A stretch of DNA of 64,000 nucleotides from the NCBI GenBank assembly GCA_047601855.1, contig JASGIM010000001.1, positions 2,820 to 66,819 of the forward strand. Direction: 5' to 3'. Source of the DNA: Flavobacteriales bacterium (GTDB lineage: Bacteria > Bacteroidota > Bacteroidia > Flavobacteriales_F > PHOS-HE28). Position 1 is the first letter of the stretch. Every line of letters begins with the position of its first letter. The position numbers and the translations under genes were made by a program. Positions 8,800 to 42,179 of this stretch are shown one piece after another. The notes below the pieces were generated by a model, which worked only from the letters and a program-made list of their open reading frames with translations, was not told the origin of the DNA and did not search any database.

Positions 8800-9029
8800 T
8801 ACTGCCCGAGGAATTTGTAGATGAACCCGAGGATGCCTTTCCAGAAGCTCGAGTTGCCCATGTTGTGCACCCCGAACACAAAGTCCATGAGGAACACGAT
8901 AAGGGAGATCAGGAGGGCTGCCACGAGCACGATGATGGAACTGCTCTGGATCTCTTTCCAGGTAGGCCAGCTCACCTTGTTCACGAGCTCGTTGTAGCTC
9001 TCGGCGAAGTATGTCTTCAGGCTTGCCAC
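8799..9029 (-). CDS. secE: Preprotein translocase subunit SecE; start uncertain (the ORF extends to a GTG at 9050 that overlaps tRNA-Trp).
   Basis: ...[38 protein letters not shown] is a single-TM SecE signature. Sits between tRNA-Trp and nusG as in other bacteria. Confidence 0.75.
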
Positions 9030-23027: not shown

Positions 23028-23399
23028 ATGCTTCGTGCCTACATCACGGGGAAGGGATTGAACCAGGCGGAGATCGCACGCCGTTCGTTCATGACACCGC
23101 AGACGCTCTCGGGCGTGTTCAAGCGCAGCACCGTGCAGCTGGAGACCTTGATCCGCCTGAGCCTGGCCATGGAGCATGATTTCCTGGCGGACATCAGCGC
23201 GCACACCATGGGCAGCCTCGCGAAACGAGCGGATGCCGGCGATCCTCCCGTGGTGTACCCGCAACGGCCTGGCCGGGCGCCGATCCGTTTCGTGATCGAG
23301 GCGGACCCGGACGACGAACGCACGCTGCGCCAAGTGGCGGAACTGCTGCGCGAGATCACCGTGGTGAGCGCGCAACCGGCGCCGGTCAAAGAGAGCTGA
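23028..23399 (+). CDS. Small XRE-family-like HTH transcriptional regulator (putative)
   Basis: MLRAYITGKGLNQAEIARRSFMTPQTLSGVFKRSTVQLETLIRLSLAME resembles an HTH_XRE domain. Only plus-strand ORF in this stretch. Its 3' end overlaps pyrF by 14 nt. The ORF could start at 22917. Confidence 0.45.
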   Translation: MLRAYITGKGLNQAEIARRSFMTPQTLSGVFKRSTVQLETLIRLSLAMEHDFLADISAHTMGSLAKRADAGDPPVVYPQRPGRAPIRFVIEADPDDERTLRQVAELLREITVVSAQPAPVKES

Positions 23400-24225
23400 T
23401 GACGTTGCGCGCCACGAGCGCCCTTTCCATCACGCGTTGGAGCGCCTGGGCGGCCACGTGGGCGGCCGGTATCGCGGCATCGCCCTTTCCGGCATAGAGG
23501 ATGCCCCGGCTGCTGTTGATGAGCAGCCCGCCTTCATCCGTCATCCCTTTCGCCAGCACCGCCTCCAGATCGCCGCCCTGCGCGCCCACGCCCGGCACCA
23601 GGAAGAAATGCCGCGGCGCCGCGGCCCGCGCCTGATCGAGCACTTCCGTGCGCGTGGCGCCCACCACGAACATCGTGTCGTCCACGGTACCCCACTCCAC
23701 CGTACGGCGCATCACGCGTTCAAAGAGCGGCTGGGCGCCGCCCTCCACCGTGAGGAACTGGAAGTCCATGGCGCCTTCGTTGCTGGTGACACCGAGCACG
23801 ATGGCCCATTTGCCGGGCCTTCCGAGGAAAGGTTCCACGCTGTCATGGCCCATGTAGGGCGCGATGGTGACGGCATCGAAGTCGAGGGCATCGAAGAACG
23901 CCTCGGCATACTTGCGGGCGGTGTTCCCGATGTCGCCGCGTTTCGCGTCGGCGATGATGAAGCAATCGCCCTTGCTGCGGATATAGGCCACGGTGCTCTC
24001 GAGGTCGCGCCAGCCGTCGGTGCCATTGGCCTCATAGAAGGCCAGGTTGAGCTTGTAGGCCACGGCCAGGTCGTGCGTGGCTTCGATGATGGCATGGTTG
24101 TAGGCGCGCACCGGGTCGCTTTCCGCGCGGAAATGCTCAGGCAACAGGTGTTCCTCGGTATCCAAGCCTACACAGAGCAGGCTGCGCTTGCGGCGGATGG
24201 CGGCGATGAGTTCGGATCGGGTCAT
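23386..24225 (-). CDS. pyrF: Orotidine 5'-phosphate decarboxylase
   Basis: MTRSELIAAIRRKRSLLCVGLDTEEHLLPEHF...DCFIIADAKRGDIGNTARKYAEAFF...; 279 aa type-2 OMP decarboxylase. The Arg-rich in-frame extension of ORF 23386-24933 is rejected. Confidence 0.85.
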   Translation of the reverse strand: MTRSELIAAIRRKRSLLCVGLDTEEHLLPEHFRAESDPVRAYNHAIIEATHDLAVAYKLNLAFYEANGTDGWRDLESTVAYIRSKGDCFIIADAKRGDIGNTARKYAEAFFDALDFDAVTIAPYMGHDSVEPFLGRPGKWAIVLGVTSNEGAMDFQFLTVEGGAQPLFERVMRRTVEWGTVDDTMFVVGATRTEVLDQARAAAPRHFFLVPGVGAQGGDLEAVLAKGMTDEGGLLINSSRGILYAGKGDAAIPAAHVAAQALQRVMERALVARNVISSL

Positions 24226-24290
24226 TGCGGCTACAAAGGTCCGAAGTGTTCGATGAACGATCGCTTTCGCACCTCGCGGAACGGACAGGC

Positions 24291-25368
24291 TTAGCTCCCC
24301 TCCTTCAGCTTCTCCGTGCGGTCCGCGAGCTGGAGCGCGTCGATGATGTCCTGCAGATCGCCATTGAGCACTTCGCCGAGGTTGTGTACGGTGAGCTCGA
24401 TGCGGTGATCGGTGACGCGGCTTTGCGGGAAGTTGTAGGTGCGGATCTTGGCGCTGCGGTCGCCGCTGCTCACCTGGCTCTTGCGGTGCGCCGCCAGGGC
24501 CACTTGCTCCGCATGCACCTTCTCTTCGTAGAGCTTGTTGCGGAGCATCTGCATGGCCTTCATGCGGTTGCCCAACTGGCTGCGCTCGGTCTGGCACATC
24601 ACCACGGTGCCGGTGGGAATGTGCGTGAGGCGCACCTTCGTTTCCACCTTGTTCACGTTCTGTCCTCCGGCGCCGCCGCTGCGGGCGGTCTCCATCTTCA
24701 CGTCGCTCTCCTTCACCTCCACGTCGAACTCGTCCGCCTCGGGCAATACGTTCACCGTGGCGGCGCTGGTGTGGATGCGCCCGCTGGCCTCGGTGGCGGG
24801 CACGCGCTGCACGCGGTGTACACCGGCCTCGTATTTCAATACGCCGTACACTCCCTCCCCCGTCACGTTGAAGACGACCTCCTTGTACCCACCGGCGGTG
24901 CCCTCGCTCACGTCGGCCACCTCCACTTTCCATCCACGGCCTTCACAGTAGCGGGTATACATGCGGAAGAGGTCGCCGGCGAACAGGCTGGCCTCGTCGC
25001 CACCCGTGCCTGCGCGTACTTCCACGGTGCAGTTGCGTTCGTCGTTCGGGTCCTTCGGCACCAGCAGCATGCGGATCTCCTCCTCCATCGCTGCGATGGC
25101 CGGGCGCAGTTCGTCCTGTTCCGCCCGGGCCATCTCCACCAGCTCGGGATCCTTCTCAGAGCGCAGCATGTCCTCCGCGCTCTGCAAATGCTCCGTGGCG
25201 CGCTTGTAGCGCTGGAAAGCTTCGTCGATGGGCCCCAGGTCGCGGTACTCGCGGTTCAGTTCCACAAAGCGCTTCTGGTCCGCGATCACGCTGGGGTCCG
25301 CGAGGCGCTTACTCACCTCGGTGCGGCGGTCGTGGATTCGCGCTCAGTTTCTCCAGCAGCTCGCTCAT
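24291..25368 (-). CDS. prfA: Peptide chain release factor 1. Apparent 1-nt insertion near 25337.
   Basis: [10 protein letters not shown] (ORF 25309-25680 frame), then ...[16 protein letters not shown]...[35 protein letters not shown]... (GGQ motif) in ORF 24291-25316. Junction at GTGGATTCGCG (25331-25341); the uninterrupted reading would be GCGATCCAC. Confidence 0.88.
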
Positions 25369-26534
25369 GGGTAGCGGAATTCGCCGTGCGCGCCGCTCAC
25401 CACCACCTCGGCGCGGCCAGGCAGGGCCTCCACGCGGCCGATGACCTTGGCCGCGATGCCGAAGCCCTCCGCGATGGCGATGATCTCCGCCGCATGGGCC
25501 CTGGGCACATAGAACTCCAGGCGGTGGCCCATGTTGAACACCTTGTACATCTCGCTCCAGCCGGTGCCGCTCATCCGTTGGATGGTGCTGAACAACGGCG
25601 GCGTGGGGAACAGGTCGTCCTTGATCACGCGCACGTTGCTCACGAAATGGAGCACCTTGGTCTGCGCGCCGCCGCTGCAATGCACCATGCCGTGTATCCC
25701 ACCGCGCATGCGCTGGAGCACTTCGCGCACCACGGGCGCATACGTGCGGGTGGGCGAAAGCACGGCCTTCCCCAGGTCTAGCGGCGTGCCGGGCAGCGGA
25801 TCCAGCAGTCCGGCCTGGCCGCTGTAGACCAGCTCATCCGGCGTGCCAGGATCATAGGTCTCGGGGAACTTGCCGGCCACGGCCTTGGCGAACACGTCGT
25901 GCCGGGCGCTGGTGAGGCCGTTGCTGCCCATCCCGGCGTTGTAGCTGTCCTCATAAGTGGCCTGCCCATCACTGGCCAGGGCCACGATCACATCTCCGGC
26001 CTGGATGCGTGCGTTGTCGATCACCTCCTCGCGCTTCAGCCGTGCGACCACAGTGCTGTCCACGATCACGGTGCGCACCAGGTCGCCCACGTCGGCGGTC
26101 TCGCCACCGGTGCTGCGGATGCCGATGCCCAGGCCGCGCATCTTTTCCAGGAACGCTTCCGTGCCCTCGATGATGGCGCTTATGACCTCACCGGGAATGA
26201 GCCGCTTATTGCGGCCGATGGTGCTGCTGAGCAGGATGTTGTCCGTGACGCCCACGCACAGCAGGTCGTCCAGGTTCATCACCACCGCGTCCTGCGCGAT
26301 GCCGTGCCACACGGAAATGTCACCGGTCTCCTTCCAGTAGGCATAGGCCAGCGCGCTCTTCGTGCCCGCGCCATCGGCATGCATCACCAGGCAATGACCG
26401 GGACTGCCGGTGAGGTCATCCGCCACCACCTTGCAGAAAGCCTTCGGAAAAAGGCCTTTGTCCAGCGTAGCGATGGCCTTGTGGACGTCCTCCTTGGCGC
26501 TGGAGACGCCGCGTTGTTCGTAGCGGGAGCTCAT
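25365..26534 (-). CDS. purM: Phosphoribosylformylglycinamidine cyclo-ligase (AIR synthase)
   Basis: 389 aa PurM-like. ...ADGAGTKSALAYAYWKETGD...VHCSGGAQTKVLHF... The stop overlaps the prfA start (ATGA). Confidence 0.9.
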   Translation of the reverse strand: MSSRYEQRGVSSAKEDVHKAIATLDKGLFPKAFCKVVADDLTGSPGHCLVMHADGAGTKSALAYAYWKETGDISVWHGIAQDAVVMNLDDLLCVGVTDNILLSSTIGRNKRLIPGEVISAIIEGTEAFLEKMRGLGIGIRSTGGETADVGDLVRTVIVDSTVVARLKREEVIDNARIQAGDVIVALASDGQATYEDSYNAGMGSNGLTSARHDVFAKAVAGKFPETYDPGTPDELVYSGQAGLLDPLPGTPLDLGKAVLSPTRTYAPVVREVLQRMRGGIHGMVHCSGGAQTKVLHFVSNVRVIKDDLFPTPPLFSTIQRMSGTGWSEMYKVFNMGHRLEFYVPRAHAAEIIAIAEGFGIAAKVIGRVEALPGRAEVVVSGAHGEFRYP

Positions 26535-26595
26535 GGATCGGGGTGCAAAGAAGAAGGCATCCCGTGTGTGGGATGCCTTCTTCCTGCCGCATGCG

Positions 26596-28627
26596 CTAGT
26601 TGTTCTGCGGCGCTGGCGTGTCCTTGGGCACGTAGTCGAAGCTGATCACCTTGAAGTCGGTGCGGCGGTTGCGCTGGTGCGCGGCCTCCTGCTCTTCCTT
26701 GGTCTTCATCTTCTTGATCTCCGCATCCGAGAATCAACGGTTCCGTGGCCCCCTTACCCACCGGCACCATGCGGGCCGGATCGATGCCTTTCGTCACCAG
26801 ATAGTTCACGCAGCTCTGCGCGCGCAACTGGCTCAGTTCCATGTTACCACCCTTGTAGCTACGGGTCTGACGGGAGTCCGTATGCGAGCGCAGCTCGATC
26901 ACGATCGTGGGATTCTCCACCAGCGTGTTGTAGAGCGTCTCCAACGAATCCTTGCCAGCCTGCGTCAGAGCGAACTTATCCACTTCATACAGCACCTGCG
27001 GCAAAGGAATCCCCCCCACAGGAGGAACAGCTGGTTGCAGGAAGTATTCCTTCACGAAGGTGGTGCTTTCAGTGAGACCCACCGTGGTGATCTGGTCGGT
27101 CACCACCAAGTATTTATCGTGGCTAGCGCGGATGCTATAGCTCGTGTTCTCCTTGATATAGCGCTCCTTCGTTGTTCCCGTCCCCTTCTCGACGAAGTTG
27201 AACCCGCCGTTGGCATCGGTGATGGCCGAGAAGCTGGAACCGTCCGTGCCCACCACTTCGATCTTGGTGTCCGGCAGGGGCGCGCCCGTAGCCTTGTCAT
27301 AGGTGGTGCCTTGCAGCGCGAACACGAGGTTCGGCATCATGAAGCGCCAGATGTCGTCCTGGCCTTTGCCGCCGGGGCGGTTGGATGTAAAGTAGCCCTT
27401 CTCCTCGTCGCCGTCGAAGATGATGCCGAAGTCATCGCCGCTGCTGTTGAGCGGGGACTTCAGGTTCTCCACGTGGCCCCAGGTGTTGTCACCGGTCTTT
27501 TCGGCCATGAACATGTCCATGCCGCCCATGCCTTGGTGGCCGTCGCTGGCGAAGTAGAGGTTGCCATTGCTGCGGAGGAAGGGGAACATGTCGTCCTTCG
27601 CCGTGTTCACCTCAGGACCGAGGTTGGAGGCCACGCCCGTGGGCTTGCCGTCCTTGTCCAGGCGGATCATCCACAGGTCCTTGCCGCCCTTGCCACCTTT
27701 CATGTTGCTGCTGAAGATCAGCAGGCCGTCATCCTTGGACAGCGCAGGGTGGCCGATGGTGATCACGTTGGTGTCGTTCTTCTCCTGCTGCGGGCGGAGG
27801 GCCAGCATTTCGGGCTCGCTGAAGTTGTTGCCCACCTTCTTGCTCATCCAGATGTCGCAGCCGAAGGCCTTCTTCTTCTCATGGGGGCAGCGCGTGAAGT
27901 ACATCACCGAGCGCTTGCTGTTGAAGGTGGCGCTGCCCTCGTGGGCGGGGGTGTTGATGCTGGGGGGCAGCTTCACCGGCTCGCTCCACTTGCCGAGCTT
28001 GTCGCGGCTGCTGGTGAAGAGGTCCGTGAAGGAGCCGCCGATGATGCCGTCCTGTTCCACGCCGGTGGAGGCGGTGCGGCTGCTGGCGAACACGAGGTCG
28101 CTGTTCTTCTTGTCCGAGAATGTGGGGCTGAAATCCAGTTCAGGCGTGTTCAGCAGCACTTCGGGGTCCACCACGTAGCGCGAGGGCTGGTCCTTCCAGG
28201 TCTGGGCCAGCTGGCAGGCGGCGAGGCTGGCGTCGGCACGGGCGTCACCGGGGTTCTTCTCCTTGTACTTGTTATAGGCGGCGATGGCCTCGGCATACTT
28301 GCCCTGCTCCTTCAGCGCCTCACCGATGTAGTAGTAGGTGATGGGGTCGGGATACTGGGCCTTGTTGGCCTTCTCGTACCACACCTGGGCGTTGGCCGCG
28401 TCGCCCAGCACGCGGTAGCACTCACCCACCTTGAAGATGAGGGCGGCCTTGTCGCTGGCCTTCTTCTCCTGGGTGTAGGCCTTCTTGTAGAGCTCGATCG
28501 CGTTGAAGTAGAACCCTTTCTTGAACGCCTCTTCAGCCTCGACGGACTGTTTGCCTTGCGCCATCGCAACGGACACGCACAACATGCTGAAGACCGAAAA
28601 GGCCAGGAGCTTCCTCATACTCATCAT
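26596..28627 (-). CDS. OmpA-family outer membrane protein with N-terminal TPR region, WD40-like (TolB/PD40) repeats and C-terminal OmpA peptidoglycan-binding domain. Apparent 1-nt insertion near 26727.
   Basis: Signal peptide MMSMRKLLAFSVFSMLCVSVAMAQ. TPR-like FYFNAIELYKKAYTQEKK.... PD40-like repeats. OmpA C-terminus ...SHTDSRQTRSYKGGNMELSQLRAQSCVNYLVTKGIDPARMVPVGKGATEPLI, then after the frame change ...DAEIKKMKTKEEQEAAHQRNRRTDFKVISFDYVPKDTPAPQNN*. Confidence 0.8.
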
Positions 28628-28786
28628 CGGGTTGCGGAAAGGGGGTGTAGGGGACAGTAGGGCACAACGAGTGCCCGGCGAAAATAAACAAAGTCGCATA
28701 CCGGACACCCCTTCGAGGGGGGAACCGTTGGATCCTACGGGGCTACGGACCAAGGCGCCAGCGATACCGGGCCTTCCGGAAGCGGC

Positions 28787-31355: not shown

Positions 31356-31700
31356 CTATCCTTGGGAGGGGGCCGCAGGAGGAGCGTCCACCGAAGGAGC
31401 GGATGGCATCTCAGGCGTGGCCGGGGCTGTTGGCGGAGCGGCCGGTTGCTGCGGAACGGCGTTCTCGGGCGGCTCGATGCGGAAGGCACGGCGCTGTTCC
31501 TCGTACCCCTGCTTCACTTCATCGGCCCCGCGCTGGATCTCCCGCTGCACCTCGGCCGTGGCATCACGCAACTGGCGCATGGTGCGCCCCATGGTGCGCG
31601 CGATGCCGGGAAGGCCCTTGCTGCCGAAGAACAGCAGCACGAAAAGCAGGATCACGATGAGCTCGCCACCGCTCACGTCGAACAACAGAGCCACGGACAT
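31356..31700 (-). CDS. tatA: Twin-arginine translocase subunit TatA/E
   Basis: MSVALLFDVSGGELIVILLFVLLFFGSKGLPGIARTMGRTMRQLRDATAEVQREIQ..., followed by a Pro/Ala-rich tail. Confidence 0.85.
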   Translation of the reverse strand: MSVALLFDVSGGELIVILLFVLLFFGSKGLPGIARTMGRTMRQLRDATAEVQREIQRGADEVKQGYEEQRRAFRIEPPENAVPQQPAAPPTAPATPEMPSAPSVDAPPAAPSQG

Positions 31701-31749
31701 CGGGACAAAGGTACCCTTCCACAAGCTCAGGATGACACATACAACCGCA

Positions 31750-31985: not shown

Positions 31986-34900
31986 TCAGGCGGTCACCGG
32001 CACGGCGGGGGACTTTTCGGGAACACCGTCCTTGTGCAGGTCCACCACCACCGCGGAGGCGATGAAGATGGAGGAGTACGTACCCACGGCGATACCCACG
32101 AGCATCGCGAACACGAAGCCTTTGATGGAGTCGGCGCCGAAGAGGAAGATCACCAGCAGCACGATCAGCACGGTGACCGACGTGTTGATGGTACGGCCCA
32201 GCGTGGAGTTGATGGCCTTGTTGAAGACCACGGCCCACGGGTCCCGCTTGTGGTCCTGGAGGTACTCCCGGATACGGTCGTACACCACCACCGTATCGTT
32301 GATGGAGTAGCCGATCACCGTAAGGATGGCGGCAATGAAGTGCTCATCGATCTCCAGCGAGAAGGGCATGATCTTGTACAGCAGCGAGTAGAGCGCCACC
32401 ACCACCAAGGCATCATGCGCCAGCGAGAGCAGGGCGCCCAGGCCGAACTGCCAGGTGCGGAACCGCACCGCGATGTAGAGGAAGATGAACAGCAGCGCAG
32501 CTATTACGGCGTACCAGGCATGGGCGCGGATGTCGTCGCTGATCGTGGGGTCCACCTTGCGCGAGGCCGCCACGCGGAACGGGTCGTTCATCGTGCGCAG
32601 GCCTTCCTGGAGCTTGTCCTCCACCAGCTTGTCCGTGGCCAGGTCGGTGCTGTTCACCATGTAGTTGGTGGTCACCTTCACCTGGTTGCTGCCGCCGTAG
32701 CTCACCACGCGCACGCCGCTTTCCACGCCTTCCAAGGTGAAGGCCGGCTCCAGGGCCGTGCGCACGTGCTCCACCTCCACCGGCTGGTCGAACTTCACCA
32801 CGTACTCACGGCCGCCGGAGAAGTCCACCCCGTAGTTGAAGCCCTGGGTGAACATGCTCACGAAGCCGGCGATGATGAGGACGCCGGAGAAGAGGTAGAA
32901 GTACTTCCGCTTGGCCATGAACTGGTAGTTCGCGTGGGCGAAGATGTCCTTGTTCCAGCTGTGCCAGAAGGTCATGGACTTGCCGTTCTCCAAGCGCTTG
33001 GAGATGATGAGGCGGCTGATGAAGATGGCGGTGAAGAGCGAGGTGAGGATACCCAGCGCCAGCGTGACCCCGAAGCTCTTGATGGGGCCTGTGCCGAAGA
33101 AGATCAGGATCACGGCCACTACGAAGTGCGTCACGTTCGCATCGATAATGGCGGACATGGCGTGCTTGTAGCCCAGGTCCACGGCGCTCTTGATGGCCTT
33201 GCCGTGGCGCAGTTCCTCCCGGATCCGTTCGTTAATCAGCACGTTGGCATCCACGGCCATACCCACCGTGAGCACGATACCCGCGATGCCGGGCAGGGTG
33301 AGCGAGGCCTGGAGCGAGGCCAGGGTGCCCATCAGCACGAACACGTTGGCGAGCAGGGCCACGTTGGCCACCCAGCCCGAGCCGTTGTAATAGATGACCA
33401 TGAAGAGCATCACCATCAGCATGGCCACCGCGAAGGAGATGAGGCCGCGCTGCACATTCTCGCCACCGAGTGAAGGGCCCACCACCGTTTCATCGATGAT
33501 GCGCGCAGGCGCCGGCAGCGCACCGGCCTTGAGCACGTTGGCCAGGTCGGTCGCTTCTTCCAGTTGGTTGTTGCGGTCGCCGCTGCCCATGCTGATGCTG
33601 CTGCGGCCGCCGGGGATCTCGCCCATGACGTTGGGCGAGGACACCACGCAGCCGTCCAGCACGATGGCGATCTGCTTGCCCACGTTCTCGCCGGTCATCA
33701 GCTTCCAGGTCTGGCCGCCTTCGGCGTTCATCTGCATGGTCACCTCGGCATCGCCCTTCATGTCGAAGTCCTGGCGGGCATCCACGATCACGCTGCCGTC
33801 CAGTTTCGGCTTGCCGCCACGGGGCACGCGCAGGGCGTGGAGGGTGAGGAAATCACGGCCGTTGCCGTCGGCGGCGAACATCTTCGTGGGCTTGCTGCTC
33901 CAGGCCAGTTTCAGGCCCTGGCTCGCGTTCGGGCTGCTGGGGGGGGCCAGGCGGAGCAGGCGGGCCACCTCGGCGGTGTCGCTCACGGCGCAATACCCCA
34001 CCACGTCACCGCGGCCCAAACGGCCGTCACCGGTCATGTTGGGCACCAACCGGCCCAGCAGCGGGTTCTTGGCCAGGCGTTCGGCCTCGGTCATCTCAGG
34101 CTTGGTGGAATCCGCAGCGGTGGTGTCCGCCAAGGCGGCATCGGCCAGGCTGTCGGCCTTGGACTTGCCCGCGGTCTCGGCGGAAGGGTCGGTGGCCAAC
34201 ACCCTCAGGGCCATGCGACGGTTCTTCGCACGTCCTTCTGCAGTAGCGTTGCTGGCCACGGGGTGCTGCGAACCATAGCCTTCCGCTTCCAGCCGGCCGG
34301 TCGCCACACCCTTGCCCACCAAGGCGGCCACTACGGCCTCGGCACGCTGCTGGGAGAGGCGTTGATTGGCCTGCTCATTGCCCGTGCTGTCCGTGTAACC
34401 ACCGATCTTCAGGCGGACCGCTGGATAGGCCTTCATCACTTCGGCCAGGTTGGTCAGCTGTTCCATTGAGCGAGCTGCGTCCAGCTTGGCGCTGCCGCTC
34501 TCGAACGTCACCCGGTCGAAGTCGATCCAATTCTCTTTGTCCACCGCCTTGCCACTGGCCAGGAGATCCACCAATCGCTTCTCCACGCCGGTGGTATTAC
34601 CGCTGATCTTGGTGCCCGTAGGCAAGGTGTGGTCATACGTAGCGCCTCCCTTGTCGGCACTGTCGGCCTTCGCCAGCTCGGGGTGGAGCATGGCGCTGAG
34701 CTTGGTGTTGGAAGCGGCGATCGCCGGGAACACGTCCTGGTTGTCGAAGGTCTCCCAGAACTCCAGGTTGGCGGTGCTTTGCAGCACTTTGCGCACCCGC
34801 TCCTTGTCCTTCACGCCGGGCAGCTCGATCTGGATGCGGCCGCTGATGGACTGCTTCTGGATGCTCGGCTGGGCCACGCCGAACTTGTCGATACGGGTGC

Positions 34901-35513
34901 GGAGGATGCGTTCGGTGTTGTTCAGCGCGATACCGGCCTGGTTGCGCAGCGCGGCGATCACCTGGCTGTTCGTGCTCTCCCGCGGGAACATGGCCGCATT
35001 GTCCTGCGAACTGAAGATGGCGGCGAGGCTGCCGTTCGGGGCGGCCTTGCGGAACTCTTCATCGAAAAGGGTGATGAAATCGCTGTTGCTGCTGGATTGG
35101 CGATGGCGGGCGGCGTCCAGCGCAGCGCGGAAGGCGGGGTCTTGGCTGTTGCCGCTGAGGTTGTCCACCAGTTCGGGGATGCTCACCTCCAGGGTCACGG
35201 CCATGCCGCCCTTCAGGTCAAGGCCGAGGTTGATCTCGCGCTCCTTGCACTCCTTGTACGTGTAACCGAAGAGCGGGTACACCTTGTCGTCATCGTGGTC
35301 GCGCAGGTATTTGTTCTCGAACACCAGCTTGATCGAATCGCGATCGATGTGGGCGGGGTTGCCCAGCGTTCCGATCAGCGAGTCGGCCTGGGCCACGGCG
35401 ATGCCGTCAGCCTTCCGTTCCAGGCCGCCGGTGAAGAAGGAAAAGGACAGCTGCCACAAACATGCGATCGCCAGGAGGATGGTGAACACCCATAGCGCGC
35501 CTCGATTCTGCAT
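31986..35513 (-). CDS. secDF: Protein translocase subunit SecDF (fused), ~1175 aa, with an OmpA-like domain embedded in the SecD periplasmic region
   Basis: MQNRGALWVFTILLAIACLWQLSFSFF... Conserved SecD motifs ANLEFWETF and ...IAIVLDGCVVSSPNVMGEIPGGRSSISMG...LANVLKAGALPAPARIIDETVVGPSLG. SecF half ...GVDFSGGREYVVKF.... Between the SecD motifs lies FDRVTFESGSAKLD...GGYTDSTGNEQANQRLSQQRAEAVVAALVGKGV...GYGSQHPVASNATAEGRAKNRRMALRV (nt ~34197-34526). Confidence 0.88.
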   Translation of the reverse strand: MQNRGALWVFTILLAIACLWQLSFSFFTGGLERKADGIAVAQADSLIGTLGNPAHIDRDSIKLVFENKYLRDHDDDKVYPLFGYTYKECKEREINLGLDLKGGMAVTLEVSIPELVDNLSGNSQDPAFRAALDAARHRQSSSNSDFITLFDEEFRKAAPNGSLAAIFSSQDNAAMFPRESTNSQVIAALRNQAGIALNNTERILRTRIDKFGVAQPSIQKQSISGRIQIELPGVKDKERVRKVLQSTANLEFWETFDNQDVFPAIAASNTKLSAMLHPELAKADSADKGGATYDHTLPTGTKISGNTTGVEKRLVDLLASGKAVDKENWIDFDRVTFESGSAKLDAARSMEQLTNLAEVMKAYPAVRLKIGGYTDSTGNEQANQRLSQQRAEAVVAALVGKGVATGRLEAEGYGSQHPVASNATAEGRAKNRRMALRVLATDPSAETAGKSKADSLADAALADTTAADSTKPEMTEAERLAKNPLLGRLVPNMTGDGRLGRGDVVGYCAVSDTAEVARLLRLAPPSSPNASQGLKLAWSSKPTKMFAADGNGRDFLTLHALRVPRGGKPKLDGSVIVDARQDFDMKGDAEVTMQMNAEGGQTWKLMTGENVGKQIAIVLDGCVVSSPNVMGEIPGGRSSISMGSGDRNNQLEEATDLANVLKAGALPAPARIIDETVVGPSLGGENVQRGLISFAVAMLMVMLFMVIYYNGSGWVANVALLANVFVLMGTLASLQASLTLPGIAGIVLTVGMAVDANVLINERIREELRHGKAIKSAVDLGYKHAMSAIIDANVTHFVVAVILIFFGTGPIKSFGVTLALGILTSLFTAIFISRLIISKRLENGKSMTFWHSWNKDIFAHANYQFMAKRKYFYLFSGVLIIAGFVSMFTQGFNYGVDFSGGREYVVKFDQPVEVEHVRTALEPAFTLEGVESGVRVVSYGGSNQVKVTTNYMVNSTDLATDKLVEDKLQEGLRTMNDPFRVAASRKVDPTISDDIRAHAWYAVIAALLFIFLYIAVRFRTWQFGLGALLSLAHDALVVVALYSLLYKIMPFSLEIDEHFIAAILTVIGYSINDTVVVYDRIREYLQDHKRDPWAVVFNKAINSTLGRTINTSVTVLIVLLVIFLFGADSIKGFVFAMLVGIAVGTYSSIFIASAVVVDLHKDGVPEKSPAVPVTA

Positions 35514-35720: not shown

Positions 35721-38000
35721 ATGCGCCATCGCCTGTCCACCCTCTTCTCCGTTCTTCCCCTGCTCCTCAGCGCGCAATTCGACCTGCATCCCGACCAAAG
35801 CATCCCGGTAACGCGCAACGGCCAGCTGCTCGGCATGCCCTGGGCCGGGGGCCTCAACTACCCGCAGGTGTCGGACATCGATCTGGATGCCGACGGCGAC
35901 AAGGACCTGTTCCTGTTCGACCGCTCCGGCAACCAGGTGATCACCCTGATCAACGATGGCGTGGAGGGGCAGATCAGCTACCACCTCTCGCACGACTACG
36001 ACCACATCTACCCCTTCGCCCAATTGCAGGAGTGGGCGCTTCTGCGCGATTACAACTGCGACGGCAAGGAGGACCTGTTCACCTATACCAATGGTGGCGT
36101 TGCGGTGTACAAGAACACGAGCGTGGGCGGCCACCTCTCCTTCGAACAGGTGGATACGCTGGTGCGGACCAATTATGTGCCGACGGTGACGAACCTATAC
36201 ATCACCCAGGTGGACATCCCGGGCATCGAGGACATCGACGGCGACGACGACCTGGACATCCTCACCTTCAGCATCTTCGGCAACTTCGTAGAGTTCCACC
36301 GCAACATGAGCATGGAACGGTACGGCACCTGCGACAGCCTGGCCTATGAAGTACACAACCGCTGCTGGGGCTTCTTCTCGGAAAGCCTCACCAGCAATGC
36401 CCTGCGCCTGAACAATCCCTGCCAATACAACGTGCCAGCCCCCGAATTTCCGGGCAGGATCACGGAATGGGTCCAGCAACTGAAGTCCAGCAATCCGGCC
36501 GTGGCCGCCAACGCTTTGAAGGAGCTGCGGGCCGCGCACGTGGGCAGCACCCTGCTCCCCTTGGACCTGGACGGCGACCGCGACATGGACCTGATCCTCG
36601 GCGACGTGCTCTACAACAACCTCGTCGCATTGACCAACGGCGGCACCATCGCACAAGCCAACATGACCGCGCAGGACACGCTGTTCCCGCAATATGATGA
36701 CCCCGTGAACCTGGACCTTTTCCCGGCGGCCTTCTTCAAGGACATCAATAACGACGGCAAACGCGACCTGATCGTGACGCCGAACTACCCCACGCAATCG
36801 CAGAACTTCCAGAGCGTGTGGTACTACAAGAACGTGGGCACCGATAGCACGCCGGTGTTCAACTTCCAGCAGGAGGACGTGTTCCAGGACCGCATGCTGG
36901 ACTTCGGGGAGGGCGCCTATCCGGTGGCCTTCGACTATGACCGCGACGGGCTGATGGACCTGGTGGTGGCCGACTACGGCTACTACCAGCAGGGGGGCTC
37001 ATACCCGAGCAAGATGGCCCTGCTGCACAACACGGGCACGGCCTCTGAACCCGCCTTCACGCTGGTGACGGACCACTATGCCGACCTGGACACCACGAAC
37101 CTCAAGGCCATCTATCCGGCCTTCGGGGACATGGACGGCGACGGCGACATGGACCTCTACCTCGGAGAGTACGAAGGGCTCCTGCACTTCTACCGCAACG
37201 TGGCCGTTTCCGGCCCGCCGCAATTCTCGCCGCAGAGCAACCTGGTAAAGGACGATAACGGCACCGTGATCGACGTGGGGCAGTTCTCCACGCCGCAGTT
37301 CTTCGACCTGGACAACGATGGCCTCCAGGACCTGCTGATCGGCGAACGCAACGGCAACCTGAGCTACTACCGCAACACCGGCACCACCAGCAGCCCGGTG
37401 TGGCATCTGGAGAACGACAGCGTGGGCGGGGTGAACACCGCGGAGTGGTGGAACGTCACCGGGTTCAGCGTGCCGTGCATGTTCCGCGGTCCGGACGGCC
37501 AGGCCCGCCTGCTGCTGGGCAGCGAGAGCGGCTGGATCCATGCGTACGACAGCATCGACAACAACCTCAACGGCACCTGGCGGATGTTGGACAGCACTTG
37601 GCAGGACATCCACGAAGGGGCCCGCACGGGCCTTGCCGTGCATGACTTCGACGGCAACGGCAGCCTGGACGTGGTGATCGGCAACTACCGCGGCGGCATC
37701 AGTTTCTGGCGGAACGACCATGTAACGGGCATCGAGCAGGCGGCGGCCCGCGTGGAACATGCCTTCCAAGTGATGCCGAACCCGGCGAACACGGCAGCGG
37801 ACATCCTCCTGGCCCTGGACGCACGGACCGGTATGCGCCTGGACGTGCTGAACGAGCTTGGACAGACGGTCCGTTCCCTGCCCGTGCGCGGCAAGCGCCT
37901 GCACATGGACACCGAGGGCCTGCGCAACGGCGTGTACATGCTGCGCCTGAGCGACGGCCCCGCACGCTGGACGGAACGGCTGGTGGTGCTGCACGAGTGA
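35721..38000 (+). CDS. FG-GAP/VCBS-repeat beta-propeller protein with T9SS type-A C-terminal sorting domain
   Basis: Signal peptide MRHRLSTLFSVLPLLLSAQ. Repeated D.D.DGD.DL(I/V) FG-GAP-like motifs. C-terminus ...FQVMPNPANTAADILLALDARTGMRLDVLNELGQTVRSLPV...GVYMLRLSDGPARWTERLVVLHE. Confidence 0.8.
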   Translation: MRHRLSTLFSVLPLLLSAQFDLHPDQSIPVTRNGQLLGMPWAGGLNYPQVSDIDLDADGDKDLFLFDRSGNQVITLINDGVEGQISYHLSHDYDHIYPFAQLQEWALLRDYNCDGKEDLFTYTNGGVAVYKNTSVGGHLSFEQVDTLVRTNYVPTVTNLYITQVDIPGIEDIDGDDDLDILTFSIFGNFVEFHRNMSMERYGTCDSLAYEVHNRCWGFFSESLTSNALRLNNPCQYNVPAPEFPGRITEWVQQLKSSNPAVAANALKELRAAHVGSTLLPLDLDGDRDMDLILGDVLYNNLVALTNGGTIAQANMTAQDTLFPQYDDPVNLDLFPAAFFKDINNDGKRDLIVTPNYPTQSQNFQSVWYYKNVGTDSTPVFNFQQEDVFQDRMLDFGEGAYPVAFDYDRDGLMDLVVADYGYYQQGGSYPSKMALLHNTGTASEPAFTLVTDHYADLDTTNLKAIYPAFGDMDGDGDMDLYLGEYEGLLHFYRNVAVSGPPQFSPQSNLVKDDNGTVIDVGQFSTPQFFDLDNDGLQDLLIGERNGNLSYYRNTGTTSSPVWHLENDSVGGVNTAEWWNVTGFSVPCMFRGPDGQARLLLGSESGWIHAYDSIDNNLNGTWRMLDSTWQDIHEGARTGLAVHDFDGNGSLDVVIGNYRGGISFWRNDHVTGIEQAAARVEHAFQVMPNPANTAADILLALDARTGMRLDVLNELGQTVRSLPVRGKRLHMDTEGLRNGVYMLRLSDGPARWTERLVVLHE

Positions 38001-40835: not shown

Positions 40836-42179
40836 ATGGCAGAACGGATGAATGAGCTCGACGCCTTCGAGCAGCGCCTGCGGGGCTCCCTCGAACAGTT
40901 CGAGGTACCCTACAACTCAGCGGACTGGGCGCAGTTGGAGCGCGCCTTGGACAATGAGCGCCGGGGATGGCTATTCAAGGGGACCGGCATGGCCACTCTG
41001 TTGGTCGCAGGGGCCTTGGTGGCAGGCGGTGCCGCCTACCTCTGGAGCGGCAAAGGGGATGCGGCCATCGCCGGCAATGGTGGCGCAACCAGCGACCAGC
41101 ATATCCCGGCCAGCACGCCCGGGGCCACCGGCAACGTAGAGAACGCGAACACCGGGTCCGCCCATGCGAACGCCGCCGGACAGGCAGGAACGCAGGTCTC
41201 CTTCGACCATTCGGGCAACACGCCGGAAGGCCCCTCCTCCAACGGTGCCGGTATCCACGCGGCGGGCATCGTGAGCACCGCACACACGCCCGACCATCTC
41301 CACAGCACATCCAACGGGGAGCAAGCGGCCACGACCAAGGCCCCTGCTACCAGCAATGCCGCGGCGCCCGCTACGGCCAAGGCCGCGGAGACGCCCAAGG
41401 CCGAACCGACCTTCCACGCCAGTGTCAGCCAGGGCTGTCCCGGCGCCCCGGTACACTTCAAGGTGGAGCACATGCCCGAGGACGGCATCTACCTCTGGAA
41501 CTTCGGCGATGGTAGCTTCAGCAACAAGCCGAACCCCGAGCATACCTTCAGCAAGCCCGGTACCTACCAGGTGATGCTGTCCATGTCCGCCAGCGGCGTG
41601 GGCACCATCCACAACAAGCCGAGCAGCGACGTGATCGTGATCCACGAACCGCCGCAGGCCGCCTTCAACATCCTGAAGCAGGAATACGACGGCCATATCC
41701 CCTCGGTACACTTCGAGAACCGCGCCATGGGCGGCAAGACCTACGCCTGGTCCTTCGGCGACGGCGCCACCAGCAGCATTGCCCATCCGGATCACATCTA
41801 CAAGAAGAAGGGCGTCTACCAAGTGGAACTGACCGTGACGAACGAGATCGGCTGCGTGGACAAGACCCTGCGCGAGGTGCTCATCGAGAAGGATTACAAC
41901 CTGGATGCGCCCACGGCCTTCTCGCCGAACGGGGACAATATCGACGAGACCTTCATCCCCGAGGCATTGCGCCAACTGGGCGTGAAGTTCCACCTGGCCG
42001 TATACGACACCAACGGCGGGCTGCTGTACGAGACCAACGATGCCACCAAGCCTTGGACCGGCCGCCTGAACAACCGCGGCGACGTATTGCCGGCAGGCGA
42101 GTACGTATGGGTGGTGGACGTGAGCGAGAACCTGCACCTGGACGAGACCTACACCGGCAAGGTGAAGCTAGTGCGCTGA
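40836..42179 (+). CDS. Putative membrane-anchored anti-sigma factor with extracytoplasmic PKD domains and a T9SS type-B C-terminal sorting domain
   Basis: Starts 4 nt after the sigma gene. Short cytoplasmic N-terminus, one TM helix (GMATLLVAGALVAGGAAYLW), a low-complexity Ala/Thr/Pro linker, two PKD-like modules (WNFGDGSFSNKPNPEHTFSKPGTYQVMLSMS; WSFGDGATSSIAHPDHIYKKKGVYQVELTV), and C-terminus LDAPTAFSPNGDNIDETFIP...AVYDTNGGLLYETNDATKPWTGRLNNRGDVLPAGEYVWVV...GKVKLVR. Confidence 0.7.
   Translation: MAERMNELDAFEQRLRGSLEQFEVPYNSADWAQLERALDNERRGWLFKGTGMATLLVAGALVAGGAAYLWSGKGDAAIAGNGGATSDQHIPASTPGATGNVENANTGSAHANAAGQAGTQVSFDHSGNTPEGPSSNGAGIHAAGIVSTAHTPDHLHSTSNGEQAATTKAPATSNAAAPATAKAAETPKAEPTFHASVSQGCPGAPVHFKVEHMPEDGIYLWNFGDGSFSNKPNPEHTFSKPGTYQVMLSMSASGVGTIHNKPSSDVIVIHEPPQAAFNILKQEYDGHIPSVHFENRAMGGKTYAWSFGDGATSSIAHPDHIYKKKGVYQVELTVTNEIGCVDKTLREVLIEKDYNLDAPTAFSPNGDNIDETFIPEALRQLGVKFHLAVYDTNGGLLYETNDATKPWTGRLNNRGDVLPAGEYVWVVDVSENLHLDETYTGKVKLVR

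Follow-up and report, generated by a model that had tools for sequence, protein, structure and literature searches.

An OmpA-like module in the periplasmic arm of a fused SecDF from an uncultured Flavobacteriales lineage

The stretch of 64,000 nucleotides analyzed here (the window; part of contig JASGIM010000001.1 of a Flavobacteriales bacterium) carries on its minus strand a gene for a fused SecDF, the protein-export motor of the inner membrane, with an OmpA-like domain in its first periplasmic region, P1. The open reading frame (ORF) at 31986-35513 encodes 1175 amino acids (aa) plus a stop codon, and its N terminus, MQNRGALWVF, is the start found in all homologues. Read on the minus strand, positions 34197-34526 encode aa 330-439 and give IDFDRVTFESGSAKLD...GGYTDSTGNEQANQRLSQQRAEAVV...NRRMALRVL. 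The plus-strand reading of the same interval was rejected, as it contains no domain and the gene lies on the minus strand. The parts of the gene, and its downstream neighbor, are as follows (TM, transmembrane helix; AF2, AlphaFold2; pLDDT, predicted local distance difference test).

31986..35513, minus strand: fused secDF gene, 1175 aa plus stop (ORF translation, Pfam, NF009585, fold matches).
35433..35489, minus strand: TM1, aa 9-27, followed by periplasmic P1 up to TM2 at about aa 690 (hydropathy scan, AF2 helices, SecDF structures).
34752..34919, minus strand: N-terminal P1 base (SecD_1st, aa 199-254), ending in the hinge strand ANLEFWET (Pfam; model strand aa 250-255).
34674..34742, minus strand: helical segment, aa 258-280, leading from the hinge to the insertion point (AF2 helices 258-276 and 278-288; pLDDT 83-91 to about aa 280).
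34644..34673, minus strand: short N-side linker, aa 281-290, AKADSADKGG (mean pLDDT 53, below 50 at aa 286-290; poorly conserved).
34179..34643, minus strand: complete OmpA-like module, aa 291-445 (AF2 fold, Foldseek, phmmer, homologue alignment).
34218..34508, minus strand: PF00691 core of the module, aa 336-432 (Pfam).
34389..34391, minus strand: Asp375 in GGYTD, predicted to bind diaminopimelate (motif, invariance).
34344..34346, minus strand: Arg390 in LSQQRA, predicted to bind diaminopimelate (motif, invariance).
34089..34178, minus strand: C-side linker, aa 446-475, disordered and rich in Ala, Asp, Ser and Thr (pLDDT 31-54).
33474..34088, minus strand: P1 head and return to the base, aa 476-680 (Pfam P1_head at aa 568-668; AF2 model).
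31989..33473, minus strand: TM2-TM12 and P4, aa 681-1175, with D755 and R1080 (invariant residues; two SecD_SecF_C domains, Sec_GG).
31356..31724, minus strand: tatA-like gene directly downstream of secDF (Pfam TatA_B_E), the same neighbor in loci with and without the module.

The Pfam domains SecD_1st, SecDF_P1_head, SecD_SecF_C (twice) and Sec_GG were all found above their gathering scores, with PF00691 (OmpA) lying between SecD_1st (aa 199-254) and SecDF_P1_head (aa 568-668). The NCBIfam equivalog for Bacteroidota SecDF, NF009585 (993 positions), scored 1177.2 bits against a cut-off of 1037, but its match is split into two stretches, the second of which aligns aa 446-1163 with profile positions 269-981; the reference family profile thus has no counterpart of the OmpA segment. 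In length the protein exceeds that profile by 182 aa, and the nearest relatives lacking the module (1017-1065 aa) by about 110-160 aa. With a full-length AF2 model (mean pLDDT 77.6) as the query, the top Foldseek matches were the SecDF structures 5yhf, 5xap, 5xan and 3aqp (E values 1e-34 to 1e-31), and P1 residues 564-669 align with residues 153-253 of Thermus thermophilus SecDF. The hinge motif ANLEFWET is invariant in the homologues, while D755 (in GMAVDANVLI) and R1080 (in VYDRIRE) are invariant columns in 66 of them; from the motifs, we take these two residues to be the equivalents of Escherichia coli SecD D519 and SecF R247. D519 of SecD is named in PMC7695460. With both proton-pathway residues kept, the SecDF motor looks intact as judged from its sequence, and as part of the explanation that we favor overall the gene probably encodes a functional fused SecDF driven by the proton-motive force (PMF) and predicted to stimulate export.

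Compared with canonical fused SecDF (T. thermophilus and Deinococcus radiodurans; 3AQP, 5XAP, 5YHF; NF009585), the protein has the same core of 12 TMs of the resistance-nodulation-division (RND) type, the same P1 base and head, P4, the invariant proton-pathway Asp and Arg and a gene context with other export genes. It differs in the addition of the approximately 155-aa OmpA-like module and its linkers, where NF009585 has nothing. Every feature of the SecDF family that could be tested in the protein, and every feature of the OmpA-like family that could be tested in the insert, was found.

With TM1 (aa 9-27) before it and TM2 (about aa 690) after it, the module belongs to P1, a region that solved SecDF structures show to be periplasmic. 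The PF00691 match at aa 336-432 covers the full model (1-98) with 76.1 bits against a cut-off of 27.2 (E value 2.9e-21). The architecture of the complete module is a beta-hairpin and a helix followed by a beta-alpha-beta-alpha-beta-beta core, and the N-terminal hairpin and helix extension carries a conserved GVE..L..FL...DK.TW motif. Alignment with relatives lacking the module places the insert after '...LHPELAKADS' and before an A/D/S/T/L-rich linker that leads to 'KNPL...'; the helical segment at aa 258-280 is common to both forms. The C-side linker, whose pLDDT is below 50 at aa 447-473, matches the DSLA-type repeat linker that alone fills the site in orthologues without the module. Inside the full-length model the module has a pLDDT of 81-95, and modeled alone it reached a pLDDT of 88 and a pTM of 0.84. 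Foldseek matched it to PA0833-PD (6jfw), the OmpA C-terminal domain of Capnocytophaga gingivalis (5wtp), YiaD (2k1s), the C-terminal domain of OprF (5u1h), MotB, Pal and TagL, and also to Acinetobacter baumannii OmpA (AbOmpA) with diaminopimelate and with pentapeptide (3td4, 3td5; target-normalized TM-score 0.78-0.80). Target TM-scores were 0.81 for 5wtp, 0.80 for 5u1h, 0.80 for 3td5 and 0.75 for 6jfw, and 5wtp superposes on the module with an rmsd of 1.6 A over about 105 aligned columns. The best solved relative by sequence (phmmer) is E. coli YiaD (2k1s; E value 9e-26). The models suggest that the module is an autonomously folding unit of about 155 aa and that the loop which holds it, between the P1 head and the helix next to the hinge, is naturally disordered.

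A preliminary description, made from the letters of the window, had read this gene as a fused SecDF, in one continuous frame and about 170 aa longer than is typical of Bacteroidota, with a canonical OmpA C-like domain between Ala/Asp/Ser/Thr-rich linkers inside the SecD periplasmic head. The SecDF assignment, the extra length, the single frame, the domain and the linkers all agree with what we found, and so do the coordinates of the gene and of the quoted sequence, once placed on the minus strand. The flagged interval, 34197-34526, was too small, as the module with its hairpin and helix extends over aa ~291-445 (34179-34643). Its place in P1 also stands, although the insertion is not in the middle of the head but at the N-terminal edge, after the hinge strand and helix. 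Modeling of the head region, which the same description had proposed, shows the module folding confidently within P1.

The residues expected of a peptidoglycan-binding OmpA-like domain are conserved throughout. GGYTD (including D375), N383, L386, R390, A391 and NRR431-433 are invariant in all 46 SecDF modules collected, and these columns do not vary in 34 free-standing relatives of the module either. In AbOmpA, Asp271 and Arg286 bind the diaminopimelate of peptidoglycan (PMC12108004). D375 and R390 stand 15 residues apart in the TD...LSxxRA motif, a spacing identical to that of the AbOmpA pair, to which we mapped them by motif rather than from a printed alignment to 3TD3. The D375/R390 pair is therefore predicted to bind diaminopimelate. 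In close gene pairs (synonymous divergence, dS, of 0.26-0.45; Nei-Gojobori), the ratio of nonsynonymous to synonymous substitution (dN/dS) was 0.03-0.26 for the module and 0.02-0.20 for the rest of the gene, with the C-side linker the fastest-evolving of all segments. The key motifs are invariant across lineages whose SecDF cores have diverged to 58% identity. The low dN/dS shows that the module is maintained by purifying selection and is not decaying.

The architecture is not peculiar to this contig. A protein identical to the window SecDF (P0001) has been recorded from a metagenome-assembled genome (MAG) labeled 'Flavobacteriales bacterium' at NCBI, and among the best 120 homologue clusters 46 have the module at the same site, in proteins of 1126-1192 aa drawn from NCBI, JGI, ENA and Logan and on contigs of up to 3.9 Mb. 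We also scanned GTDB, with one genome per species, for the junction together with the module. Both were present in about 24 species representatives, all of them uncultured Flavobacteriales-type MAGs from activated sludge and lakes; in 21 of these the gene reads through as one unbroken ORF of 1153-1177 aa, long-read 'tig' contigs included, and in two more it runs off the contig end. No frameshifts or stops were found in module-bearing secDF among the 21 complete genes, and module and gene have the same overall G+C. A chimera or mis-join is ruled out because the same architecture recurs in many independent assemblies.

From these searches, the SecDF-OmpA combination appears confined to one uncultured Flavobacteriales lineage. 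It was not found in the cultured genomes of the GTDB scan, and among the best 150 matches of a HMMER search that covered 1.84 billion cluster representatives, none outside the clade had SecD_1st followed by OmpA. The only representative among those 150 with both domains (P0241, one 50%-identity cluster) belongs to the same clade. Long candidates that matched in several stretches and were chosen for a Pfam check turned out to be multi-OmpA proteins or SecDF without the module. The preliminary description had called the architecture unusual and had raised the question of lineage specificity; it is indeed lacking from the reference Bacteroidota SecDF profile as well as from the cultured genomes, and within these uncultured Flavobacteriales it is clade-wide but patchy.

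Forms with and without the module are orthologues. In two loci with the module (L001, L083), in two without it (L002, L084) and in the window, the gene order is the same: an FG-GAP protein with a type IX secretion tail on the opposite strand, secDF, tatA, and GSIII downstream. Paralogy of the two forms was rejected on the basis of this shared neighborhood. On a neighbor-joining tree from 974 shared columns the two forms are interleaved, and Fitch parsimony counted 14 changes of module state against about 37 with shuffled labels. The count was 13-15 when the tree was drawn from one part of the gene instead (N-flank, P1 head, immediate flanks or TM region). A history of losses only takes 21 events, one of gains only 16 and a mixed one 14, and these counts leave the direction of evolution undecided.

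Some pairs of proteins that differ in the module are nearly identical outside the cassette. P0003 and P0067 have about 100% protein identity there (90-95% at the DNA level), and P0021 and P0102 match at 100% over their C-terminal ~600 aa. Both are pairs of congeneric species rather than strains, with a background DNA identity of about 85-93%. In both, the allele without the module has 40-60 aa of unrelated low-complexity sequence at the site, often repeats of the (D/T)SLA type. Loss by simple trimming of the linker was rejected for these two pairs on account of that unrelated sequence, and a clean deletion between flanking direct repeats was rejected as well, since only short chance repeats flank the module of the window. 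Because congeneric species have repeatedly lost or replaced it, the module would seem to be dispensable for the core function of SecDF. In P0009, P0016, P0025 and P0102 (the last at L084 ~8850-9000), the site is filled by (D/T)SL(A/K)-type repeats, for example DSLKTPVDSLKTAADTL and DSLATDDLATDSLSTD, which are encoded by imperfect tandem repeats.

Several observations point to recombination at the locus. L083 (9985-12585) and L084 (9592-12192) share a 2.6-kb tract that is 98-100% identical against a background of about 85-93%; it starts ~600 bp downstream of the cassette and spans the 3' part of secDF, tatA and a Na_Ca_ex gene. This tract indicates recent homologous recombination at the L083/L084 secDF locus. 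Between L016 and L014 or L018, dN is 0.25 in the TM/C-terminal half of secDF (equivalent to aa 681-1160 of the window protein) and 0.01-0.04 in the N-terminal parts, which indicates that the L016 gene is a mosaic. For the window gene, the nearest relative by core (P0002, 80% identity) lacks the module; the window's module is closest to that of P0015, with which it shares 78% identity, the cores sharing 64%. The G+C content at third codon positions (GC3) is 0.76 in the module of the window (34179-34643) versus 0.91 in the rest of the gene (z=-6.3), with the flanking soluble P1 segments at 0.88-0.90. Module GC3 was below that of the rest of secDF in 24 of 24 genes tested, the dip in the window being the strongest, and a foreign or recombinational origin or different constraints are possible causes. 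Taken with the relationships of core and module, the strong dip is a hint, short of proof, that the window lineage acquired its module laterally. All SecDF modules are at least 58% identical to one another, and module identity correlates moderately with core identity (Spearman 0.43). As a whole, the sequence comparisons fit a single origin and mostly vertical descent with many losses, and possibly some recombinational exchange.

Outside SecDF, the closest relatives of the module are at most 62% identical over 96% of its length, N-terminal hairpin and helix included. These are proteins of about 220 aa (P0121, P0131, P0171), in which a short cytoplasmic tail is followed by a single TM helix, a Pro/Ala linker and then the module. 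The module also ends proteins with a DUF937-TM arrangement (L045 of Dyadobacter luteus; P0300). Two further carriers are H+-pyrophosphatases with a C-terminal module: L042 (1766-4450, plus strand; 894 aa, H_PPase E value 1.7e-261) and L032 (9-1985, plus strand). The MAGs of these two loci (new MAG-317 and UBA3364) each have a SecDF-OmpA gene as well (L019, L012). The partial sequences P0150, P0160 and P0188 have the same pyrophosphatase fusion. In another protein, P0316 (810 aa), two OmpA-like domains that belong broadly to the same subfamily are joined to a PorP/SprF type IX secretion membrane domain. Judging by these relatives, SecDF appears to have acquired the module a single time, from a family of OmpA proteins anchored in the inner membrane. 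The module is a reusable periplasmic add-on for inner-membrane proteins, found on single-pass anchors, H+-pyrophosphatase and SecDF.

The inner-membrane-anchored OmpA proteins (P0121; L045; YiaD, 2K1S) have the same TD...LSxxRA...NRR motifs and the same periplasmic location, but theirs is a C-terminal domain on a long linker with a single anchor, while the SecDF module is internal and tethered at both ends. With scores below the cut-offs for the profiles YiaD_Gzip_OmpA (116.8 against 175) and anchor_PA1041 (98 against 250), the module resembles the YiaD and PA1041 equivalogs but is a member of neither. In MotB, PomB and MotY, and in TagL/TssL of the type VI secretion system, an OmpA-like domain likewise sits on a PMF-driven or envelope-spanning inner-membrane machine. 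SecDF, however, is an RND-type transporter and not a 5:2 stator of the MotAB type, and its module is an insertion rather than a C-terminal domain; the MotD and MotB profiles match the OmpA part only, far below their cut-offs. The module is not a stator anchor of the MotB type, for both host protein and position of the module differ. The H+-pyrophosphatase fusions (L042, L032) have a module of the same subfamily, about 55-58% identical, on the periplasmic side of a polytopic proton-coupled protein and co-occur with the SecDF form in two MAGs, but the host differs and the fusion is terminal rather than internal.

No second copy of the module was found in the 64-kb window, the only other match being a distant OmpA domain at 26531-28753. 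That gene (minus strand) encodes a 740-aa protein with TPR and PD40 (WD40-like) repeats and a C-terminal OmpA domain, 29% identical to the SecDF module, and is conserved near the related loci L083 and L084. Divergently adjacent to secDF, at 35721-38000 (plus strand), lies a gene for an FG-GAP repeat protein whose orthologues carry Por_Secre_tail, and at 40836-42179 (plus strand) one for a PKD-domain protein with a CHU_C sorting domain. From their domains, both proteins are likely type IX secretion substrates, and the synteny of their genes with secDF is kept across the clade. In the 515-aa ORF at 23386-24933 (minus strand), an OMP decarboxylase domain covers aa 252-487 only; the N-terminal extension of about 250 aa may be an over-extended call or an extra domain.

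We consider it probable that the module, riding on SecDF, is an accessory tether that links the inner membrane non-covalently to the peptidoglycan. The module would most likely bind a diaminopimelate-containing stem peptide non-covalently through Asp375 and Arg390, and, once bound, would tether SecDF, together with the Sec holo-translocon, to the cell wall. SecDF, as an abundant inner-membrane protein, would thereby serve as the anchor of an accessory link between inner membrane and peptidoglycan, and the module may have the same role on H+-pyrophosphatase and on the single-pass anchors. The site near the hinge and the long C-side linker should limit interference with the swing of the head. 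The loop that is disordered in relatives, the long C-side linker, the occurrence on unrelated anchors and the repeated loss all suggest loose coupling and dispensability.

Certain points weigh against this tether. The module is held at both ends, with an N-side linker of only about 10 aa, and its reach from P1 to the sacculus is a rough geometric guess. Peptidoglycan binding beside the hinge could restrict the head, in which case the module would be no neutral passenger of the motor. Fusion to two PMF-linked proteins, SecDF and H+-pyrophosphatase, may be more than coincidence, and the repeated loss could equally mean that the module is useful only under some conditions. The diaminopimelate-type chemistry of the peptidoglycan in these uncultured organisms is assumed.

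An alternative that we regard as unlikely, but worth weighing, is that the module is built into the motor. The P1 arm would be fixed to the sacculus in a stator-like manner, or the translocon held under the wall or under BAM, the machinery for beta-barrel assembly, so that PMF-driven P1 movements would be better passed on to substrates or across the periplasm, and presence or absence of the module would tune export. The module does sit on the mobile element itself, directly after the hinge strand, and reorientation of the P1 head, which differs between the Super-F, F and I forms of SecDF, is central to the working model of this protein (PMC5974789). The periplasmic domains of SecDF are also reported to contact BAM and to relay PMF-dependent changes (PMC7695460). 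OmpA-like domains anchor other PMF motors, MotB and MotY being among the structural matches, purifying selection on the module is comparable to that on the core, and the same module occurs on a second proton-coupled protein. Against such integration, the module is missing from congeneric species with near-identical SecDF cores, its state has changed by gain or loss at least 13 times, the disordered loop of relatives and the flexible linkers suggest a loose rather than a rigid coupling, and the same module is found on unrelated anchors that have no motor.

A more specific proposal, which we think quite improbable, is that of a wall-anchored motor in which peptidoglycan binding at the P1 hinge converts or gates the PMF-driven swing of the head, as in the MotB and TolR stators, and in which both alleles are functional states that are maintained, and passed between species by homologous recombination, as an adaptation of the envelope. 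If this were true, the H+-pyrophosphatase fusion would point to a deliberate immobilization of proton-coupled machines on the sacculus.

It is doubtful that the module instead has a protein partner or a different envelope polymer as its ligand, or serves as a regulatory switch like YfiB. OmpA-like signaling proteins such as YfiB are among the sequence and fold matches, the conserved GVE..L..FL...DK.TW motif of the N-terminal extension has no assigned role, and the module scores below the cut-offs of both peptidoglycan-anchor equivalogs. YfiB itself also binds peptidoglycan, however, and the Asp, Arg, Asn and NRR residues typical of the peptidoglycan pocket are invariant, while the best structural matches are bona fide peptidoglycan-binding domains.

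The module might also be a neutral or decaying passenger of a disordered loop, on its way to being lost; its frequent absence in close relatives, the tolerance of the loop for arbitrary low-complexity sequence and the lower GC3 in 24 of 24 genes could be read in this way. The selection data largely refute this idea, which we hold to be very improbable: the 21 complete genes are free of frameshifts and stops, dN/dS of the module is 0.03-0.26 in close gene pairs, the key motifs do not vary even where cores are down to 58% identity, and the fold is confidently predicted. Finally, the evident derivation of the source from a MAG (P0001) would allow for an OmpA gene fragment joined chimerically into secDF, but the chance of this is negligible given the same in-frame site in 46 clusters and in 21 GTDB species representatives, long-read contigs included, and a module no different from the gene in overall G+C.

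In literature combining SecDF or SecD with OmpA-like or peptidoglycan-binding terms we found no description of such a domain. The parts are familiar and OmpA-like domains are promiscuous, but an internal insertion in the moving arm of SecDF, with natural variants that have or lack it, is unreported. PF00691 is already precomputed for module-bearing proteins by public pipelines. Where product names are shown, the label on module-bearing proteins is 'protein translocase subunit SecD' at NCBI and 'SecD/SecF fusion protein' at JGI; NCBI lists orthologues without it as 'protein translocase subunit SecDF'. The insert thus seems to change the automatic product name yet goes unmentioned in it, and the names hide the extra domain.

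In the working model of SecDF, the PMF drives large swings of the P1 head (PMC5974789), and its periplasmic domains have been argued to reach across the periplasm to BAM (PMC7695460). A natural SecDF with a predicted peptidoglycan-binding domain, together with sister species that lack the module, offers a ready-made comparison, which could show whether mobility matters to the translocon, how far P1 reaches and whether Sec is positioned relative to the wall. The reuse of the module on several inner-membrane proteins also bears on how the inner membrane is linked to the sacculus in Bacteroidota, where envelope tethers are poorly known.

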